64,000 bases of DNA from the NCBI RefSeq assembly GCF_044324785.1, contig NZ_CP172127.1. The stretch is one strand, 5' to 3'. Of this stretch, positions 1,842-52,023 are shown piece after piece. The first letter of the stretch is position 1; each line of letters starts with the position of its first letter. The stretch comes from Escherichia coli. GTDB lineage: Bacteria; Pseudomonadota; Gammaproteobacteria; Enterobacterales; Enterobacteriaceae. The notes beneath the pieces are model-generated. The model saw only the letters and a program-made list of their open reading frames with translations, searched no databases and was not told the DNA's origin. The position numbers were made by a program, and so were the translations under genes.

Positions 1842-4274
1842 ATGACCACACTGAAACTGGATACGCTCAGCGACCGCATTAAAGCGCACAAAAATGCGCT
1901 GGTGCATATTGTGAAACCGCCGGTCTGTACCGAGCGCGCGCAGCACTATACTGAGATGTATCAACAACATCTCGATAAGCCGATCCCGGTACGTCGCGCG
2001 CTGGCGCTGGCGCATCACCTGGCGAATCGCACCATCTGGATCAAGCACGATGAGTTGATCATTGGCAACCAGGCAAGCGAAGTTCGCGCCGCGCCGATCT
2101 TCCCGGAATATACCGTCTCCTGGATCGAAAAAGAGATTGATGATCTGGCGGATCGTCCGGGTGCTGGTTTTGCGGTGAGCGAAGAGAACAAACGTGTTCT
2201 GCATGAAGTGTGCCCTTGGTGGCGCGGTCAGACGGTACAGGATCGCTGCTACGGCATGTTTACCGATGAGCAAAAAGGTCTGCTGGCGACCGGAATCATT
2301 AAAGCGGAAGGCAATATGACCTCCGGCGATGCGCACCTGGCGGTGAATTTCCCGCTACTGCTGGAAAAAGGTCTTGATGGTCTGCGCGAGAAAGTAGCGG
2401 AACGTCGCTCGCGCATCAACCTGACGGTGCTGGAAGATTTGCACGGCGAGCAGTTCCTGAAAGCGATTGATATCGTGCTGGTGGCAGTCAGTGAACACAT
2501 TGAACGTTTCGCTGCCCTGGCGCGTGAAATGGCAGCCACTGAAACCCGCGAAAGCCGTCGCGATGAACTGCTGGCGATAGCAGAAAACTGCGATCTTATC
2601 GCCCACCAGCCGCCGCAGACTTTCTGGCAGGCGCTGCAACTGTGCTACTTCATCCAGTTGATTTTGCAGATCGAATCTAACGGTCACTCGGTATCGTTTG
2701 GTCGTATGGACCAGTATCTCTACCCGTACTATCGCCGCGACGTTGAACTGAACCAGACACTGGATCGTGAACACGCCATCGAGATGCTGCATAGCTGCTG
2801 GTTAAAATTGCTGGAAGTGAACAAAATCCGCTCCGGCTCGCACTCGAAAGCCTCTGCGGGAAGTCCGCTGTATCAGAACGTCACCATTGGCGGACAAAAT
2901 CTGGTTGATGGTCAACCAATGGACGCGGTGAATCCACTCTCTTACGCGATCCTCGAATCCTGCGGTCGCCTGCGTTCTACTCAGCCTAACCTCAGCGTGC
3001 GTTACCATGCAGGAATGAGCAACGATTTCCTCGACGCCTGCGTACAGGTGATCCGCTGCGGCTTCGGGATGCCGGCGTTCAACAACGACGAAATCGTCAT
3101 CCCGGAATTTATTAAACTCGGTATTGAACCGCAGGACGCTTACGACTATGCAGCGATTGGTTGTATCGAAACCGCCGTCGGTGGCAAATGGGGCTATCGC
3201 TGTACCGGCATGAGCTTTATCAACTTCGCCCGCGTGATGCTGGCGGCGCTGGAAGGCGGGCGTGATGCCACCAGCGGCAAAGTGTTCCTGCCACAAGAAA
3301 AAGCGTTGTCAGCGGGTAACTTCAACAACTTCGATGAAGTAATGGACGCATGGGATACGCAAATCCGTTACTACACGCGTAAATCAATCGAAATCGAATA
3401 TGTCGTCGACACCATGCTGGAAGAGAACGTACACGATATTCTCTGCTCGGCGCTGGTGGATGACTGTATTGAGCGAGCGAAAAGTATCAAGCAAGGCGGC
3501 GCTAAATATGACTGGGTTTCTGGCCTGCAGGTCGGCATTGCTAACCTCGGCAACAGCCTGGCGGCAGTGAAGAAACTGGTATTTGAACAGGGCGCGATTG
3601 GTCAGCAACAGCTGGCTGCCGCACTGGCGGATGACTTCGACGGCCTGACTCACGAGCAGCTGCGTCAGCGGCTGATTAACGGTGCGCCTAAGTACGGCAA
3701 CGACGATGATACTGTCGATACGCTGCTGGCTCGCGCTTATCAGACCTATATCGACGAACTAAAACAGTACCATAACCCGCGCTATGGTCGTGGTCCGGTT
3801 GGCGGCAATTATTACGCGGGTACGTCATCTATCTCCGCTAACGTACCCTTTGGCGCGCAGACGATGGCAACGCCGGACGGGCGTAAAGCCCACACCCCGC
3901 TGGCAGAAGGCGCTAGTCCGGCCTCCGGTACTGATCATCTTGGCCCTACTGCGGTCATTGGCTCAGTGGGTAAACTGCCTACGGCCGCGATTCTCGGCGG
4001 CGTGTTGCTCAACCAGAAACTGAATCCGGCAACGCTGGAGAACGAATCTGACAAGCAGAAACTGATGATCCTGCTACGCACCTTCTTTGAAGTGCATAAA
4101 GGCTGGCATATTCAGTACAACATCGTTTCCCGCGAAACGCTGCTGGAAGCGAAAAAACATCCGGATCAGTACCGCGATCTGGTAGTGCGTGTCGCGGGTT
4201 ATTCCGCCTTCTTCACTGCGCTCTCTCCAGACGCACAGGACGATATCATCGCCCGTACTGAACATATGCTGTAA
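1842..4274 (+). CDS. ybiW: glycyl radical enzyme, pyruvate formate-lyase family (PflF/YbiW)
   Basis: 810 aa; C-terminal glycyl radical motif RVAGYSAFF; immediately downstream of its activase. Confidence 0.9.
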
Positions 4275-4419: not shown

Positions 4420-5235
4420 ATGAGCGTAAAAGTTATCGTCACAGACATGGACGGTACTTTTCTTAACGACGCCAAAACGTACAACCAACCACGTTTTATG
4501 GCGCAATATCAGGAACTGAAAAAGCGCGGCATTAAGTTCGTTGTCGCCAGCGGTAATCAGTATTACCAGCTTATTTCGTTCTTTCCTGAGCTAAAGGATG
4601 AGATCTCTTTTGTCGCGGAAAACGGCGCACTGGTTTACGAACATGGCAAGCAACTGTTCCACGGCGAACTGACCCGACATGAATCGCGGATTGTTATTGG
4701 CGAGTTGCTAAAAGATAAGCAACTCAATTTTGTCGCCTGCGGTCTGCAAAGTGCATATGTCAGCGAAAACGCCCCCGAAGCATTCGTCGCACTGATGGCA
4801 AAACACTACCATCGCCTGAAACCTGTAAAAGATTATCAGGAGATTGACGACGTACTGTTCAAGTTTTCGCTCAACCTGCCGGATGAACAAATCCCGTTAG
4901 TGATCGACAAACTGCACGTAGCGCTCGACGGCATTATGAAGCCGGTTACCAGTGGTTTTGGCTTTATCGACCTGATTATTCCTGGCCTGCATAAAGCGAA
5001 TGGTATTTCGCGGTTACTGAAACGCTGGGATCTGTCACCGCAAAATGTGGTAGCGATTGGCGACAGCGGTAACGATGCGGAGATGCTGAAAATGGCGCGT
5101 TATTCCTTTGCGATGGGCAATGCTGCGGAAAACATTAAACAAATCGCCCGTTACGCTACCGATGATAATAATCATGAAGGCGCGCTGAATGTGATTCAGG
5201 CGGTGCTGGATAACACATCCCCTTTTAACAGCTGA
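4420..5235 (+). CDS. ybiV: HAD-family sugar phosphatase
   Basis: Internal ATG at 4420 of ORF 4189..5235; N-terminal HAD motif VTDMDGTFL; 271 aa. Confidence 0.9.
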
Positions 5236-5242
5236 CCTCTCT

Positions 5243-5278
5243 ACCGGAGCTATGCGCTCCGGTTTTCCCTTCTTTTTA
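5243..5278 (+). terminator. rho-independent terminator after ybiV
   Basis: Hairpin ccggagctatgcgctccgg followed by a T-rich tract. Confidence 0.55.
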
Positions 5279-5386
5279 CATCCTTTACATCACATCAAAT
5301 CATTAAACTTCCATTAACTTATTTATAACTTATATTGTCACATGCAAATCAGCATAGTTTCGAATGAAAGTTAATGCGAGGTGGTT

Positions 5387-6652
5387 ATGGCTTCTACTTT
5401 TACCAGCGACACATTGCCTGCCGATCACAAAGCAGCTATCCGTCAGATGAAGCACGCGCTGCGGGCGCAGCTTGGCGACGTCCAGCAGATCTTTAATCAG
5501 CTAAGCGATGACATTGCCACGCGAGTGGCTGAAATCAACGCACTCAAAGCACAGGGCGATGCCGTCTGGCCGGTGCTGTCTTATGCCGATATCAAAGCAG
5601 GTCATGTTACTGCAGAGCAGCGCGAACAAATTAAACGTCGCGGTTGTGCGGTGATAAAAGGCCATTTCCCCCGCGAACAAGCGCTAGGCTGGGATCAGTC
5701 GATGCTGGACTATCTGGACCGCAACCGCTTTGACGAGGTCTACAAAGGCCCCGGCGATAATTTCTTCGGGACACTCAGCGCTTCACGTCCCGAGATTTAC
5801 CCCATCTACTGGTCGCAGGCGCAAATGCAGGCCCGCCAGAGTGAAGAAATGGCGAATGTGCAGTCGTTTCTCAATCGTCTGTGGACATTTGAAAGTGATG
5901 GAAAGCAATGGTTTAACCCGGATGTGAGCGTCATCTACCCTGACCGTATCCGCCGCCGTCCGCCCGGAACGACCTCCAAAGGTCTTGGAGCGCATACCGA
6001 CTCCGGGGCGCTGGAACGCTGGCTGCTTCCAGCGTATCAGCACGTTTTCGCCAACGTCTTTAATGGCAATCTGGCGAAATACGATCCCTGGCATGCGGCA
6101 CATCGTACGGAAGTTGAAGAGTACACGGTGGACAACACCACCAAATGTTCCGTGTTTCGGACATTCCAGGGCTGGACAGCGCTCTCTGATATGCTGCCTG
6201 GTCAGGGGTTGCTGCACGTCGTGCCCATTCCTGAAGCCATGGCGTACGTACTGTTACGTCCGCTGCTTGATGATGTGCCGGAGGATGAACTGTGCGGCGT
6301 AGCGCCCGGAAGAGTGTTGCCGGTATCAGAGCAATGGCATCCACTGTTAATTGAGGCGTTAACCAGCATTCCAAAACTCGAGGCCGGAGACTCCGTCTGG
6401 TGGCACTGCGACGTCATCCATTCCGTTGCCCCCGTTGAAAATCAACAGGGTTGGGGCAACGTGATGTACATTCCTGCGGCACCGATGTGCGAGAAAAATC
6501 TTGCCTACGCGCACAAGGTGAAGGCCGCACTGGAAAAAGGCGCATCGCCGGGCGACTTCCCGCGCGAGGACTATGAAACAAACTGGGAAGGACGCTTTAC
6601 GCTTGCCGACCTCAACATTCACGGTAAGCGAGCGTTGGGAATCGACAGCTGA
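5387..6652 (+). CDS. ybiU: DUF1479-family protein YbiU
   Basis: ORF 5381..6652; ATG at 5387 has GAGG upstream; 421 aa recognised as YbiU. Confidence 0.85.
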   Translation: MASTFTSDTLPADHKAAIRQMKHALRAQLGDVQQIFNQLSDDIATRVAEINALKAQGDAVWPVLSYADIKAGHVTAEQREQIKRRGCAVIKGHFPREQALGWDQSMLDYLDRNRFDEVYKGPGDNFFGTLSASRPEIYPIYWSQAQMQARQSEEMANVQSFLNRLWTFESDGKQWFNPDVSVIYPDRIRRRPPGTTSKGLGAHTDSGALERWLLPAYQHVFANVFNGNLAKYDPWHAAHRTEVEEYTVDNTTKCSVFRTFQGWTALSDMLPGQGLLHVVPIPEAMAYVLLRPLLDDVPEDELCGVAPGRVLPVSEQWHPLLIEALTSIPKLEAGDSVWWHCDVIHSVAPVENQQGWGNVMYIPAAPMCEKNLAYAHKVKAALEKGASPGDFPREDYETNWEGRFTLADLNIHGKRALGIDS

Positions 6653-31735: not shown

Positions 31736-31764
31736 GCCCGTCCGTTACTGGACGGGCTTTTTTG
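31736..31764 (+). terminator. rho-independent terminator downstream of ybiJ
   Basis: gcccgtccgttactggacgggc followed by ttttttg. Confidence 0.7.
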
Positions 31765-32473
31765 TGCACAGAAAACCCCCAGCTAGGCTGGGGGTTCCGG
31801 AAAGCTTTCAGCTTTGAGCCAGTTATTAAAACCCCTTTTGATTTGTTAAAACACCTTGCGGTCTGGCAACTGCAAGTGTCAAACAAGAAATCAAAAGGGG
31901 GTCCCAATGGGGGACGAAAAGAGCTTAGCGCACACCCGCTGGAACTGTAAATATCACATAGTTTTTGCGCCGAAATACCGAAGACTGGCGTTTTACGGAG
32001 AGAAGCGTAGGGCGATAGGCAGTATTTTGAGAAAGCTGTGTGAGTGGAAAAGCGTACGGATTCTGGAAGCAGAGTGCTGCGCAGATCATATCCATATGCT
32101 TGTGGAAATCCCACCCAAAATGAGCGTATCCGGCTTTATGGGATATCTGAAAGGGAAAAGCAGTCTGATGCTTTACGAGCAGTTTGGGGATTTGAAATTC
32201 AAATACAGAAACAGGGAGTTCTGGTGCCGAGGGTACTATGTCGATACGGTGGGTAAGAACACGGCGAAGATACAGGACTACATAAAGCACCAGCTTGAAG
32301 AGGATAAAATGGGGGAGCAGTTATCGATTCCATATCCGGGCAGCCCGTTTACGGGCCGTAAGTAACGAAGTTGAATGCAAATGTCAGATCGTATGCGCCT
32401 GTTAGGGCGCGGCTGGTAACAGAGCCTTACAGGCGCATTTGAAAAACCTCCGGCTATGCCGGAGGATATTTAT
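31758..32473 (+). mobile_element. IS200 insertion sequence (ends approximate)
   Basis: Y1 transposase gene flanked by similar subterminal hairpins (cccccagc-tag-gctggggg at 31776-31794 and cctccggc-tat-gccggagg at 32447-32465); RBS-sequestering stem-loop at 31829-31904; about 0.7 kb. Confidence 0.75.
31907..32365 (+). CDS. tnpA: IS200 transposase TnpA (Y1/HUH)
   Basis: ORF 31856..32365; start MGDEKSLAHTRWNC at 31907 (152 aa); HUH motif HIHMLVEI and catalytic Tyr region. Confidence 0.9.
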   Translation: MGDEKSLAHTRWNCKYHIVFAPKYRRLAFYGEKRRAIGSILRKLCEWKSVRILEAECCADHIHMLVEIPPKMSVSGFMGYLKGKSSLMLYEQFGDLKFKYRNREFWCRGYYVDTVGKNTAKIQDYIKHQLEEDKMGEQLSIPYPGSPFTGRK

Positions 32474-36874: not shown

Positions 36875-37010
36875 TTGTGGCATTTTTCGGTTTTCAGGGG
36901 TAATGGTTTTTCTGTTTCTGGAAAGCGGCTCGCAATAACGTTTTCTGGAAGTGAGATTTTCCCGCAGCAGAAGAAACATCATTGCGTAGTAAAAGACAAT
37001 GCACGCAGGC

Positions 37011-37292
37011 TTATTGCGCTGGTGGCCATTGCAGGGCGGTATGCAAAACACGCAGTACCGAGAGCGTATCGCCCTCCACTTGGTAGATCAGCACATAATG
37101 CGGTCTGACAACGGCTTCATGAGTGCCAGCGACTCGTCCGGCCCGATACATCTGCGGGCGTTCACAAACCTGTTCCGCAATGGCTTCAAATTGATTATCA
37201 AGGGCAATTGCCGCTTGCGGATTATCTTTACTGATGTATACCATGATTTGCTCCCTGTCAGACAGGGACATTGGCTTCCATTCCAGACGCAT
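37011..37292 (-). CDS. RelE/ParE-family toxin (ParE-like), 93 aa
   Basis: Pattern typical of ParE/RelE-fold toxins (YISKDNPQAA ... YVLIYQVEGDTLSVLRVLHTALQWP); start ATG overlaps the upstream stop (TAATG). Confidence 0.7.
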   Translation of the reverse strand: MRLEWKPMSLSDREQIMVYISKDNPQAAIALDNQFEAIAEQVCERPQMYRAGRVAGTHEAVVRPHYVLIYQVEGDTLSVLRVLHTALQWPPAQ

Positions 37293-37732
37293 TAATCCCC
37301 CTTCAACAAGGCTTTTTTACGGGCAGCAAATAGACTTTTGGCCTCTTCATGAGAGAGCGCTGGGCGTGGATCGTCAATGGCGGCCTGCACCTGCTCTCGA
37401 AACCAGGCATCATACGCGGCAGCTTCATGAGCTCGTTTTAATGCCTCTGCCCTGTCAGGTCGGGTCGTTTTCTTCTGACCATCCGGGTCGTAATTAGAGG
37501 CGTCGACTTCAAACCGGGCAATACCAACATCTTTCAGGTAGTTGACAACCGTTTCCAGCCGTTTGAACAGGCGGATTTGCCGACTGCGTTGTGCTGCAAG
37601 AGGCCGTTCAGTGTGGCCGTATTTCACGGTCAACGACCAGCCTCCCTGGGTGCCAATAACGTGTGCTGCATCCACTACGCCAGACTCAACCAGTTTATGT
37701 AAGGTTGAGTGATCGATCGTTTCTGGTGCCAT
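37292..37732 (-). CDS. putative antitoxin partner of the ParE-like toxin, atypically long (146 aa), function unknown
   Basis: Coupled to the toxin gene by a 1-nt overlap; AGAGG about 10 nt upstream of the ATG; no confident family assignment by eye. Confidence 0.55.
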   Translation of the reverse strand: MAPETIDHSTLHKLVESGVVDAAHVIGTQGGWSLTVKYGHTERPLAAQRSRQIRLFKRLETVVNYLKDVGIARFEVDASNYDPDGQKKTTRPDRAEALKRAHEAAAYDAWFREQVQAAIDDPRPALSHEEAKSLFAARKKALLKGD

Positions 37733-37768
37733 AATGCGCTAACCTCTTTGTATACAGCATGCAATTTA

Positions 37769-37812
37769 TAATTAAAGATAGCGCAATTAATAATTAAAGA
37801 TAGCGCAATTAA
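37769..37812. repeat. perfect tandem direct repeat, 2 x 22 bp, in the promoter region of the toxin-antitoxin-like operon
   Basis: taattaaagatagcgcaattaa at 37769-37790 and again at 37791-37812, 37-80 bp upstream of the start at 37732; candidate operator. Confidence 0.6.
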
Positions 37813-37909
37813 TAATAAATTGCATTTTTTGATCGTAAATTGTCCAGGGTGAAATTGCGGTAGAAAGAGACTTGTTGCGAAGATGCCGGGCATCGCCCGG
37901 CATAAAAAG

Positions 37910-47645: not shown

Positions 47646-48601
47646 TGAGTAAATCACACCCGCGCTGGCGCTTAGCAAAGAAGATCCTCACCTGGCTGTT
47701 TTTTATCGCGGTGATTGTGTTGCTGGTGGTCTACGCCAAAAAGGTGGACTGGGAAGAGGTCTGGAAGGTCATCCGCGACTACAATCGCGTTGCGCTGCTT
47801 AGTGCGGTCGGGCTGGTGGTCGTCAGTTATCTGATTTACGGCTGCTATGACCTGCTCGCCCGCTTTTACTGCGGTCACAAACTGGCGAAGCGCCAGGTGA
47901 TGCTGGTGTCGTTTATCTGCTACGCCTTCAACCTGACGCTCAGTACCTGGGTCGGCGGCATTGGTATGCGCTATCGTTTGTACTCCCGGCTAGGGTTACC
48001 GGGCAGCACCATTACGCGGATTTTCTCGCTGAGTATTACCACCAACTGGCTGGGCTATATTTTACTGGCGGGGATTATCTTTACCGCGGGCGTGGTGGAG
48101 CTGCCGGATCACTGGTATGTCGATCAAACTACACTGCGTATTCTCGGCATTGGCTTATTGATGATTATCGCGGTTTATTTGTGGTTTTGCGCTTTCGCGA
48201 AGCACCGCCATATGACCATCAAAGGGCAAAAACTGGTGCTGCCTTCATGGAAATTTGCCCTCGCCCAGATGCTGATTTCCAGCGTTAACTGGATGGTAAT
48301 GGGAGCGATTATCTGGCTGTTACTCGGTCAAAGCGTAAACTATTTCTTTGTACTGGGTGTGTTGCTGGTTAGTAGCATTGCTGGCGTCATCGTGCATATT
48401 CCGGCGGGAATTGGTGTGCTGGAAGCGGTATTTATCGCGCTACTGGCTGGGGAGCATACCTCCAAAGGCACAATTATCGCCGCCCTGCTCGCTTACCGTG
48501 TGCTGTATTACTTTATCCCACTGCTGCTGGCGCTGATCTGTTACCTGCTACTGGAAAGTCAGGCGAAGAAGCTACGGGCGAAAAATGAAGCGGCGATGTG
48601 A
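47645..48601 (+). CDS. ybhN: inner membrane protein YbhN
   Basis: 318 aa polytopic membrane protein; overlaps clsB stop. Confidence 0.85.
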   Translation: MSKSHPRWRLAKKILTWLFFIAVIVLLVVYAKKVDWEEVWKVIRDYNRVALLSAVGLVVVSYLIYGCYDLLARFYCGHKLAKRQVMLVSFICYAFNLTLSTWVGGIGMRYRLYSRLGLPGSTITRIFSLSITTNWLGYILLAGIIFTAGVVELPDHWYVDQTTLRILGIGLLMIIAVYLWFCAFAKHRHMTIKGQKLVLPSWKFALAQMLISSVNWMVMGAIIWLLLGQSVNYFFVLGVLLVSSIAGVIVHIPAGIGVLEAVFIALLAGEHTSKGTIIAALLAYRVLYYFIPLLLALICYLLLESQAKKLRAKNEAAM

Positions 48602-48636
48602 AGTTTAGTTAAGTTCTTTAGTATGTGCATTTACGA

Positions 48637-49086
48637 CTAATGAAAAAAACGCGTATGCCTTTGCCAGACAAGCGTTATCGCTATTGCTGCAAGAATCCCA
48701 AAGAAGCCGATAAAATAGTAATAGAGTGTTAATGCACCTGTAACAGCGCAACGAACCGGACTCCACAATTCTTCGCTATGGCATTTTCCTGCCAGTTCAA
48801 GGAGCTTATTTCGTCCATGCGAGATAATGCCTGACCATAAAACAATCATTAAGCAACTTATTACCCAAATGGGCCGTTCACTCATTAATGCGGCATTCAC
48901 GATGATCACCAGGGCCAACCCTGTCAACGTCATCATAATGATAAAACGGTGAGAACCAGGATCAACATTAAATAATAAACCGGCCAGCATACTGATTAAA
49001 AACATCGCGCCCGCAGTGCTGAACACAAGGATAATGGCAGATACAGGAAGTGACTGCTCCCCGTCCTGTCGGGCGAGGCTTCCCAC
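48637..49086 (-). pseudogene. ybhM: ybhM (BAX-inhibitor/YccA family), C-terminal fragment; upper boundary approximate (about 49030)
   Basis: Minus-strand ORF whose TM-rich sequence continues the N-terminal fragment at 50769..51113; separated from it by the tnpA/tnpB element. Confidence 0.65.
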
Positions 49087-49089
49087 TTC

Positions 49090-50259
49090 TTAAGCCGCAA
49101 CCGTCTGTGTGACGGATTTATGCTGGCCTCCATGGGCAGAAACGACGAGTCCCGCCGCTTGTAATTCCAGTATGCCCTTGCGTTTGATGTTGAGCGCCGC
49201 GTTGATATCGCGGTCATGTTCAACTCCACACTCTGGACACTGCCAGATGCGCTTACGTAATGGCATCTCCGACATTTTGTGACCGCAGCAGTGGCAGGTT
49301 TTCGAACTGGCGAACCATTGATCCAGTTTCACCAGATGCACACCTTTCTCTGCTGCTTTATATTCCAGTTTTGTGATGAATCCAGACCATCCAGCATCGC
49401 CTATCGCACGAGCCAGATGGTGATTTTTCATCATATTTGCCGTTTTCAATTTCTCGACAATTACCGCTTGGTTTTCGTCAACAATTGCGCGAGATAACTT
49501 GTGCTGGAAATCGGCACGGGCACTGGCTACCCGTTCGTGAACGGCTGCAAGTTGTATTCTGGCTTTGCGCCTGTTTGCGCTCCCTTTTTTCTTACGGGAC
49601 AGTGCTTTCTGCTTCCGGCGCAGGTTGCGACTTGCATTGATTAGGTGGCGGGGACTGGCAATTTTATTGCCGTCCGATTTGATGACAAAATGCGCCAGCC
49701 CCATATCCAGCCCTGTCACATTTGATATCAGTGCGGGCTTTGCCGGCGCTTCCATCCCGTCGTCACAGAGTAACGACGCGTAGTATTTCCCGGTTGCGCT
49801 GCGGCTCAACGTGATACTTTTCAGCATTCCCGTAATTTCACGATGTAAACGCGCTTCAATCGGCAAGATTTTCGGTATTTTTATCGCACCATCAAGGACT
49901 TTTATGCCAACACAATGATAGCTCGATTGTCTGCCGTGTTTACTTTTAAAGGTAGGTTTACCTGCTTTCAGTTTCGGATTGAAAAAGTTAGAAAAAGCCA
50001 CGTCGAGGTTAATTACCGCCTGCTGCAACGCAATAGAATCATATTCTTTAAGCCATCCATACCGGCGGGATTTCTTCGCCACTGCAAGCAGTGGTTTGAG
50101 GTCTTTACGCGGGTTTAAATTTACGCGGTGCCGCTGGTAAGAATGTTTCTTGATATGCAGAGCTTTGTTGTACGCAAAACGCACTGCACCGAACTGGGCG
50201 TTGATAAATTCAGCCTGTTCTGGTGTCGGGTAGATGCGTACTTTTGTTGCTCTTAACAT
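49090..50259 (-). CDS. tnpB: TnpB (IS605-family OrfB; RuvC-like RNA-guided endonuclease)
   Basis: 389 aa; RuvC-I GLDMG, zinc finger CHCCG...CPECG, RuvC-III HDRDINAALN; apparently intact. Confidence 0.85.
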   Translation of the reverse strand: MLRATKVRIYPTPEQAEFINAQFGAVRFAYNKALHIKKHSYQRHRVNLNPRKDLKPLLAVAKKSRRYGWLKEYDSIALQQAVINLDVAFSNFFNPKLKAGKPTFKSKHGRQSSYHCVGIKVLDGAIKIPKILPIEARLHREITGMLKSITLSRSATGKYYASLLCDDGMEAPAKPALISNVTGLDMGLAHFVIKSDGNKIASPRHLINASRNLRRKQKALSRKKKGSANRRKARIQLAAVHERVASARADFQHKLSRAIVDENQAVIVEKLKTANMMKNHHLARAIGDAGWSGFITKLEYKAAEKGVHLVKLDQWFASSKTCHCCGHKMSEMPLRKRIWQCPECGVEHDRDINAALNIKRKGILELQAAGLVVSAHGGQHKSVTQTVAA

Positions 50260-50315
50260 AATCAGCGCTCATTGATATAATGCTTTTATTTTAACACTTT
50301 AGGTGAATATATCAA

Positions 50316-50741
50316 TTGAGTAATCATGATGATTTACTGGCGGGATTTCTCCGCAAACGACACAGTGTCAGTAAGCTGGTTGTGCACCTTATTTTTACGA
50401 CAAAGTATCGACGCAAACTATTCGACAGTCAGATGATCGCTCAGTTGCGTGAGGCTTTTGGCTCCGCTGCGGCAAAGCTTGAATGCGAAATTATTGAGAT
50501 GGACGGGGAGCCAGACCATGTACACCTGCTGGTGGCCTACCCGCCAAAACTGGCGGTCAGTGTGATGGTCAATAATTTAAAATCGGTATCATCACGTTTG
50601 CTACGCCAGCAGAACGCGCATTTACGTATGCAGAGTAAAACGGGGCTTTTGTGGTCGAGATCGTACTTTGTCTGTAGCACCGGAGGGGCAACGATTGAAA
50701 CGCTCAGAGCCTACGTTCAGAGTCAGTCAACACCTGATTGA
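50316..50741 (+). CDS. tnpA: IS200/IS605-family transposase TnpA (Y1/HUH)
   Basis: 141 aa; HUH motif HVHLLV; C-terminal Tyr in RAYVQSQ. Confidence 0.85.
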   Translation: MSNHDDLLAGFLRKRHSVSKLVVHLIFTTKYRRKLFDSQMIAQLREAFGSAAAKLECEIIEMDGEPDHVHLLVAYPPKLAVSVMVNNLKSVSSRLLRQQNAHLRMQSKTGLLWSRSYFVCSTGGATIETLRAYVQSQSTPD

Positions 50742-50768
50742 TCTTTAAAGCCCTGCGGGCTTTTCGCC

Positions 50769-51113
50769 TTATATCCCCGCCCGCATTGGGCGAGGGTTTA
50801 CGGCGTTTTTCGCTAAACTTGCAACGACAATCGCCACCAAAGAGAGTAAAAACAGATATATTACGCCTGCGATGGCGGCATTTATCTTGTTGATATCCTT
50901 ACTTAAGCCATACATACAAAGTAATAATAACCCTATGGCGACATACATTGGTGGTGAATCATATTTGGTTGCCGTAATTTCGAGATACTTAGCTCCCCAG
51001 GCCAGTCCTGCGGTTGCCACCAAACCTAAAGCGGTAATGAGCCATATACCGTTTAATATCCTGGCCTCGTGCTGAAAATCTAATTTATTGCTGTTTTGCG
51101 AGTATGATTCCAT
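50769..51113 (-). pseudogene. ybhM: ybhM N-terminal fragment; the reading frame runs into the IS end and stops
   Basis: ORF 50769..51140 (-); start MESYSQNSNKLDF at 51113; last codons (NPRPMRAGI) overlie the IS subterminal hairpins. Confidence 0.65.
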
Positions 51114-51318
51114 TCTTTTAGTTGTCCTTAGAAAAAACATTAATATTTACCATCAATAAATTTAAAGCCACGCATACAAAATACTTTTTTATTTATGGAT
51201 ACGGAAAACGCTTCCGCTCGCTCATAAGGCATATTTTATACCTGGTACTTGTTAAGTGTCGTTTTTTCGTAAGAAAAAATCCCGACACATGGCCGGGATA
51301 TTGATGGTGAAAAAAGAA

Positions 51319-52023
51319 TTAACGGCGGTTGCCGAAGATCCGCAGCAACATCAGGAACAGGTTGATGAAGTCCAGATACAAGGTTAACGCGCCAAGAATG
51401 GAATATTTGCGCAGGTTCGACGTGTCGCGGGTATCAATCTGCTCACCCATATTTTTCAGTTTCTGCGTGTCATACGCCGTCAATCCGACAAAGACAATCA
51501 CGCCGATGTAGGTGACTGCCCACATCAATGCTTCGCTTTTCAGCCAGAAGTTGACCAACGATGCCAGCACAATGCCGATTAACGCCATAAACAGCATATT
51601 GCCAAAGCCGCTTAGATCGCGCTTCGTGGTGTAACCGTACAGGCTCATTGCGCCAAACATCCCGGCAGTAACGACGAAAGTACTGGCGATAGAAGCAGCG
51701 GTATAGACAATGAAAATACTGGAAAGCGTAAGACCCGTCAGCGCCGAATAAAGCATAAAGAGCATCGTCGTCACACCTGCGCTCAGCTTTTGAATCATCG
51801 CTGATAACACAATAACCAATGCTAATTGCGCGATGATCAGACCGATTAAAAAGACACGGTTAGTGAACAACAGCTCCATCACGGCCGCGGAATTAGCCGC
51901 ATACCAGGCAACAAATGCGGTCAGCAACAAGCCAACGGTCATCCAGCCATAGACTTGCGCCATATAAGTTTGCAAGCCAGCCCGGGGTTGTACAATTGAA
52001 TCAGAACGTGGGAATCTGTCCAT
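51319..52023 (-). CDS. ybhL: BAX-inhibitor/YccA-family inner membrane protein YbhL
   Basis: ORF 51319..52104 (-); start MDRFPRSDSIVQ at 52023 (234 aa). Confidence 0.85.
   Translation of the reverse strand: MDRFPRSDSIVQPRAGLQTYMAQVYGWMTVGLLLTAFVAWYAANSAAVMELLFTNRVFLIGLIIAQLALVIVLSAMIQKLSAGVTTMLFMLYSALTGLTLSSIFIVYTAASIASTFVVTAGMFGAMSLYGYTTKRDLSGFGNMLFMALIGIVLASLVNFWLKSEALMWAVTYIGVIVFVGLTAYDTQKLKNMGEQIDTRDTSNLRKYSILGALTLYLDFINLFLMLLRIFGNRR

Follow-up and report, generated by a model that had tools for sequence, protein, structure and literature searches.

Why does the ybhM gene of an Escherichia coli genome stand in two pieces, and what has come to lie between them? The question was raised by a 64,000-nucleotide stretch of contig NZ_CP172127.1 (RefSeq assembly GCF_044324785.1), hereafter the window, in which this gene of the Bax1-I family is interrupted by an insertion sequence (IS). 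The interrupting element is an IS of the IS200/IS605 family with divergent tnpA and tnpB genes. It is almost certainly an intact, autonomous copy of ISEc46 that entered ybhM after nucleotide 301 of the gene as a single insertion in one lineage, has been inherited vertically and is still mobile. The event is an ordinary insertion of a known IS, whose biology is already known and which shows no departure from the established IS200/IS605 model.

The element and the gene it interrupts

Alignment of the window to the intact ybhM of strain AST215 (L001) placed the inserted element at positions 49050-50812 (1763 bp), position 49049 adjoining position 50813 in the uninterrupted gene. The edges of this complete ISEc46 copy, which is read on the minus strand of the window, were set by the empty sites of AST215, K-12 and N3, and its assignment followed the ISEc46-annotated copies of RefSeq, which were 99.5-99.7% identical to it across the full length. 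The original prediction, made from the DNA letters alone, had described an IS200/IS605-family element with divergent tnpA and tnpB that splits ybhM at 49033-50795. The family and the gene arrangement were borne out by the protein family matches given below (NF033573 and NF040570), and the split by the intact YbhM of AST215, K-12 and N3, which mapped across both fragments; the predicted length was exact, but each boundary had been set 17 bp too low. The check it had proposed, an alignment to intact YbhM, located the junction and identified TTAG as the target motif.

A megablast search of 5,426 complete E. coli genomes returned full-length matches at 99.7% identity among hundreds of ISEc46 copies, which rules out a chance occurrence. 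The matching copies are labelled in RefSeq as 'IS200/IS605-like element ISEc46 family transposase' and 'RNA-guided endonuclease InsQ/TnpB family protein', and include one between ompF and asnS (strain 2017.06.04CC), with six nucleotide differences from the window copy, and one within an IclR-family gene in many strains. Published reports on E. coli mobilomes routinely include ISEc46, a catalogued IS. The RefSeq copies have the same length (1763 bp), TnpA, divergent gene order, ends and TTAG target as the window copy. Compared with the ompF-asnS copy, the window copy differs by its site (ybhM), by three TnpB substitutions and by one mismatch in the stem at its right end (RE).

Both open reading frames (ORFs) of the element are full length. 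The tnpA gene (50316-50741, plus strand, TTG start) encodes a Y1 HUH single-strand DNA transposase of 141 amino acids and is transcribed toward the left end (LE). Its product matched NCBIfam NF033573 with 141.3 bits (cut-off 55; E = 1.8e-41) and was identical to the TnpA of the ompF-asnS copy (RefSeq WP_000064874.1). It also aligned to the structures of IS608 TnpA (2a6m, E = 3.5e-20) and ISDra2 TnpA, with conservation of the HVH motif at residues 68-70 and of the C-terminal tyrosine region. The tnpB gene (49090-50259, minus strand) diverges from tnpA, shares its direction of transcription (toward RE) with ybhM, and encodes an RNA-guided endonuclease of 389 amino acids that matched NCBIfam NF040570 with 341 bits (cut-off 100). 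Residues 4-380 aligned to the ISDra2 TnpB structures 8bf8, 8exa and 8h1j (E = 6e-75), and the protein kept D185 (GLDMG), E269 (VIVEKL), HDRD at 348-351 and the CxxC pairs CHCC (322) and CPEC (341). The three substitutions that separate it from the TnpB of the ompF-asnS copy (WP_000942661.1) are T270K, H335R and R380H. It has the RuvC and zinc-finger motifs in common with the TnpB of ISDra2 from Deinococcus radiodurans, the paradigm for TnpB and omega-RNA, whereas the target-adjacent motif (TAM), the target and the host of ISDra2 are different. IS608 is drawn with tnpA and tnpB in one direction, unlike the window copy, whose divergent arrangement resembles IS605.

The interrupted gene is made up of a 5' fragment of 301 nt (50813-51113, minus strand), equal to codons 1-100 plus one nucleotide, and a 3' fragment of 413 nt including the stop codon (48637-49049, minus strand), both delimited by alignment to intact ybhM. 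The ORF of the 5' fragment continues into LE, where the IS encodes a 14-residue tail (last base of the stop codon at 50769), giving a chimeric product of 114 amino acids. Deleting 49050-50812 restores an ORF of 714 nt (237 amino acids), in agreement with the earlier claim that the two fragments are in compatible frames once about 1763 bp are removed, and deleting four more bases breaks the frame. The restored ybhM is 97.2% identical to that of K-12 at the nucleotide level (20 nucleotide changes, most of them synonymous, and five amino acid differences). Its product matched the Pfam family Bax1-I (PF01027, E = 1.5e-20) over residues 19-222 and model positions 3-205 of 207, which spans both fragments, and neither fragment taken singly had an NCBIfam match. 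The K-12 gene (b0787), which carries the annotation 'Bax1-I family protein YbhM', is uninterrupted, in line with the original prediction.

In the window, ybhM is a pseudogene, and YbhM is cut to 100 native residues. According to the K-12 annotation, ybhM is followed by the convergent ybhN and by no further gene of its own direction; polar effects of the insertion are therefore unlikely. The ybhM of strain 042 is independently a pseudogene, with an internal stop codon, which suggests that the gene is dispensable; the family has other members, such as the neighbouring ybhL (51319-52023, minus strand), which is intact, as had been predicted.

Ends, target site and predicted transposition

The minus strand of the window was taken as the active, or top, strand of the IS because the target sits 5' of the tnpA-proximal end; position 50812 thus belongs to LE and position 49050 to RE. 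Read on this strand, with slashes marking the limits of the element, the layout is TTAG / CGAAAAACGCCGTAAAC-CCTCGCCC-AATGC-GGGCGGGG ... tnpA (antisense) ... tnpB (sense) ... GGGAAG-CCTCGCCC-GACA-GGACGGGG-AGCAG-TCAC / flank. The tetranucleotide 5'-TTAG at 50813-50816 (minus strand; CTAA on the plus strand), which is the target and the left cleavage sequence, derives from ybhM, is present in a single copy and stands in the empty sites of K-12, N3 and AST215, all of which read GCAAGT-TTAG/TTCCTG around the insertion point. Since TTAG adjoins the IS in all copies, positions 50813-50816 match other IS copies as well as the ybhM flank. TTAG was found directly 5' of LE at six of six independent sites (ybhM, ybhL-moaE, ompF-asnS, the IclR-family gene, a prophage and a site beside a Peptidase_S9 gene), the base at position -5 being variable and no other flanking sequence being common to them. 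No target duplication was detected, host bases being neither gained nor lost relative to the three empty sites. Terminal inverted repeats were also absent, the termini CGAAAAAC... and ...GCAGTCAC (direct reading) not being inverted repeats of each other.

Folding of the top-strand DNA revealed a subterminal imperfect palindrome at LE (IPL; CCTCGCCC-AATGC-GGGCGGGG; 50775-50795, minus strand), with an 8-bp stem containing one T.G mismatch and a foot 17 nt from the cleavage site. The corresponding palindrome at RE (IPR; CCTCGCCC-GACA-GGACGGGG; 49059-49078, minus strand), identified by folding and by comparison of copies, is the same 8-bp imperfect hairpin and lies 9 nt from the right cleavage site. 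The presumed left guide (G_L) is AAAC at 50799-50796, the four nucleotides directly 5' of the IPL foot, and the presumed right guide (G_R) is GAAG at 49082-49079; the element terminates in AGCAG-TCAC (49058-49050), with TCAC as the right cleavage sequence (C_R).

The same organization is known from IS608 of Helicobacter pylori, the mechanistic paradigm of the family, which shares the Y1 HUH TnpA, the subterminal hairpins on one strand, a guide tetranucleotide (presumed in the window copy) at the hairpin foot and the lack of target duplication. In IS608, the left cleavage sequence (C_L, TTAC) lies 19 nt 5' of IPL and C_R lies 10 nt 3' of IPR, and the cleavage sites are recognized by a guide tetranucleotide at the hairpin foot (G_L, AAAG) (PMC3201880). 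The cleavage distances are therefore 19/10 nt in IS608 versus 17/9 nt in the window copy, and the hairpin sequences of the two elements are unrelated. The G_L/C_L pair is AAAG/TTAC in IS608 versus AAAC/TTAG here; the fourth position changes from G:C to C:G in both partners together, a co-variation that is compatible with the base-pairing rule of IS608.

On this evidence, the element would have been inserted by single-strand 'peel-and-paste' transposition immediately 3' of TTAG, with the matching imperfect hairpins near both ends of the top strand as the putative substrates of the TnpA dimer. To judge from IS608 biochemistry, AAAC at the foot of the left hairpin would pair with TTAG, a pairing that would fix where the left end is cut as well as where the element inserts. 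The strand that received it would have been the lagging-strand template. The GC skew of the plus strand of the window was -0.022, and negative in four of its four quarters, which points to the IS top strand as the G-rich strand and thereby, as we infer, as the lagging-strand template. The locus lies at 0.82-0.93 Mb in K-12 and strain 042, and the moa genes are on the plus strand of the record. This orientation agrees with the bias of the IS200/IS605 family toward the lagging-strand template, which is statistical and not absolute (PMC5027513).

Inheritance, mobility and competing explanations

The 5,426 complete RefSeq genomes of E. coli all lack the ybhM::ISEc46 junction. Strain AST215, the single full-coverage match among them, has an intact ybhM and an ISEc46 of its own between ybhL and moaE, about 1.3 kb away. 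The 114-residue chimeric product was recorded exactly on 27 contigs, all labelled E. coli (the index lists 62 blocks of the collection), and a 123-residue form of the chimeric ORF, starting at an upstream ATG, had no exact record. The same junction was found in L003, L006 and L007, which were 100% identical to the window, as well as in L004 (99.8%) and L005 (99.2%), all five having the IS at the same nucleotide. Divergence of the IS was 0.11% versus 0.21% for the flanks in L004, and 0.45% versus 0.97% in L005. The assemblies that carry the insertion are draft and metagenome assemblies of E. coli, diverged by up to about 1%. Scans for the exact junction among GTDB species representatives and for the exact variant RE in JGI metagenome contigs both gave 0 matches; by the first of these, the source genome is not itself a species representative.

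Concerning the relationship to complete genomes, the nearest one was that of strain N3, with flanks 98.4-98.5% identical to those of the window, an empty ybhM site, and the same IS200 insertion beside hcxB as in the window. Over 19 kb of flank, the window was 97-98.5% identical to complete genomes, and its moa segment was 99.3% identical to that of strain 042. An origin in an Escherichia species other than E. coli, considered in view of these low flank identities, was rejected on the strength of the moa match and of the E. coli labels of the named carriers. As the same junction occurs in diverged assemblies and the IS has diverged alongside its flanks, the insertion appears to be one old event inherited vertically. 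The simplest reading of these sequence comparisons would be that the IS entered ybhM once, in the ancestor of one E. coli lineage that had already separated from N3-like strains, and was then passed on vertically.

The mobility of the element is indicated by L010 (GCA_048598525.1), which carries at positions 1948-3710 an ISEc46 identical to the window copy at 1763 of 1763 positions, including the change in RE described below. This copy belongs to a lambdoid prophage, where it lies at a different TTAG and is flanked by hok/gef on one side and by the DUF968, rusA and Q genes on the other. This identical copy in a prophage implies that the element is mobile. L012 (GCA_040038515.1) possesses a hybrid ISEc46 at positions 1900-3750: its RE flank consists of the ybhM 3' fragment, ybhN and clsB, its LE flank is the Peptidase_S9 gene of another locus, and two single-nucleotide polymorphisms lie in its LE-proximal part. 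This suggests either homologous recombination between two ISEc46 copies (by inversion or rearrangement) or a misassembly.

Several side observations concern the same copy and its surroundings. Phages may carry this IS variant between strains. In L006 (GCA_053151395.1), an IS1 at positions 5229-5998 lies within the tnpB of the ybhM::ISEc46 copy, at the equivalent of window positions 49885-49893; the 9 bp of overlapping flank are consistent with an IS1 target duplication, and the nested IS inactivates TnpB. The neighbourhood from ybhN to moaE is variable: the ISEc46 of AST215 between ybhL and moaE (L001, 3787-5549) is an independent insertion, and strain 042 (L009, 17219-19914) has an island of about 2 kb between ybhN and ybhM, encoding a SUKH-4 immunity protein and a DUF3969 protein.

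The element also has the parts from which a retention mechanism could be built. An omega-RNA would be transcribed from the 3' end of tnpB and RE and would reach into ybhM, with a guide of about 5'-TTCCTGTATCTGCCAT; the predicted guide would be supplied by the ybhM 3' fragment, as its initial ~16-20 nt from 49049 downward (5'-TTCCTGTATCTGCCATTATC), and TTAG is the predicted TAM of TnpB. The donor joint of TTAG and ybhM, recreated when the IS is excised, would then be cut by TnpB and its omega-RNA, and recombinational restoration would retain the IS. TnpB-mediated transposon retention and the role of the guide have been documented for the family (Meers et al., bioRxiv 10.1101/2023.03.14.532601). 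That the ybhM copy is held in place by such homing, the excised site being cut and repaired from the sister chromosome that carries the IS, is a tentative proposal and rather doubtful.

The explanations that compete with an intact, vertically inherited and still mobile ISEc46 differ in what they call into question. One of them holds that the two ybhM pieces are not one gene, or that the junction is an assembly artefact joining an IS contig to ybhM. All that could be cited for it is the absence of the junction from the complete RefSeq genomes of E. coli; in three intact alleles, however, the pieces meet without a gap or an overlap, together they restore the full Bax1-I domain, several independent assemblies from NCBI and ENA (contigs of 4.9 and 5.7 Mb among them) share the identical junction, and 27 contigs have the exact chimeric product on record, which leaves this explanation a negligible probability. 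The element could also be real and yet a decayed or domesticated relic, that is, an immobile IS or one whose TnpB has been recruited as a TldR-type, nuclease-dead regulator. Two lineage-specific changes would favour this: a G>A at window position 49064, which turns a C:G pair of the IPR stem into C.A where other copies read GGGCGGGG, and T270K in TnpB (codon at 49450-49452), which directly follows the presumed catalytic Glu269 (VIVE-K-L). The persistence of the insertion at one site over about 1% sequence divergence would fit as well. A relic is nevertheless very improbable, given two full-length ORFs, a TnpA identical to that of the reference copy, intact catalytic motifs in TnpB, the 100% identical copy with the RE variant at a different TTAG site in the L010 prophage, and the further copy elsewhere implied by the L012 hybrid. 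Immobilization of the copy by the G>A change was considered in its own right and rejected on account of the prophage copy, which carries the same change at its other TTAG site.

A third possibility concerns only why the insertion has persisted, namely selection, either because loss of YbhM is advantageous or because homing by TnpB and omega-RNA restores the IS after excision. The allele has been kept over the divergence of the lineage, ybhM was independently inactivated by an internal stop codon in strain 042, and the family has a documented retention mechanism, the TAM and guide arrangement that it needs being found at this locus. Against this, a neutral insertion passed on vertically accounts for the same observations; IS200/IS605 elements are in general rarely excised, which makes a retention mechanism unnecessary; and a single independent ybhM pseudogene is weak evidence. 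Selection is unlikely, although less so than a relic. The interpretation as an intact and mobile ISEc46 inherited from one insertion has its own weak points, although nothing contradicts its core. These are the stem mismatch and T270K just described; the name ISEc46, which was taken from the RefSeq/NCBI annotation; and the replichore call, which was drawn from GC skew and from synteny to K-12 and 042, not from the origin and terminus of this genome. Likewise, an Rfam search of 48600-51200 for an omega-RNA family gave no match at E<=1, and an RNA fold of the tnpB 3' end, RE and flank was not better than those of shuffled sequences (minimum free energy z = -1.1, single sequence).

Other features of the window and significance

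The window contains a second IS200/IS605-family element at about 31764-32468, of the IS200 type (~705 bp, tnpA only), located between ybiJ/ybiE and hcxB. Its tnpA ORF (31856-32365, plus strand) matched NF033573 with E = 2.8e-42. This insertion by hcxB is absent in strain 042 and occurs at the same site in N3 with 100% identity, and relatives of the element were found in 2,645 of the 5,426 complete genomes. A further segment, at about 36940-37880 between dinG and rhlE, differs from strain 042, where ybiA stands. It encodes a toxin-antitoxin module of the RelE/ParE-RelB type, with RelB/ParC-like matches for the ORF at 37292-37732 (minus strand), and is 94.7% identical to a version present at full length in 324 complete genomes.

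For the annotation of this genome, the result is that ybhM should be recorded as a pseudogene disrupted by ISEc46, with edges at 49050-50812 and TTAG as the target; beyond annotation, its importance is small. The ybhM::ISEc46 allele can conveniently serve to mark the lineage, as none of the 5,426 complete genomes has it whereas a set of draft assemblies does. The locus is also a possible natural test bed for TnpB-mediated transposon retention. If homing were true, it would account for the persistence of the insertion over about 1% divergence while the variant seeds new copies (in a prophage and at a ptrB-like locus), and ybhM::ISEc46 would provide a case from nature, on a chromosome, of the retention that experiments with engineered constructs have shown.

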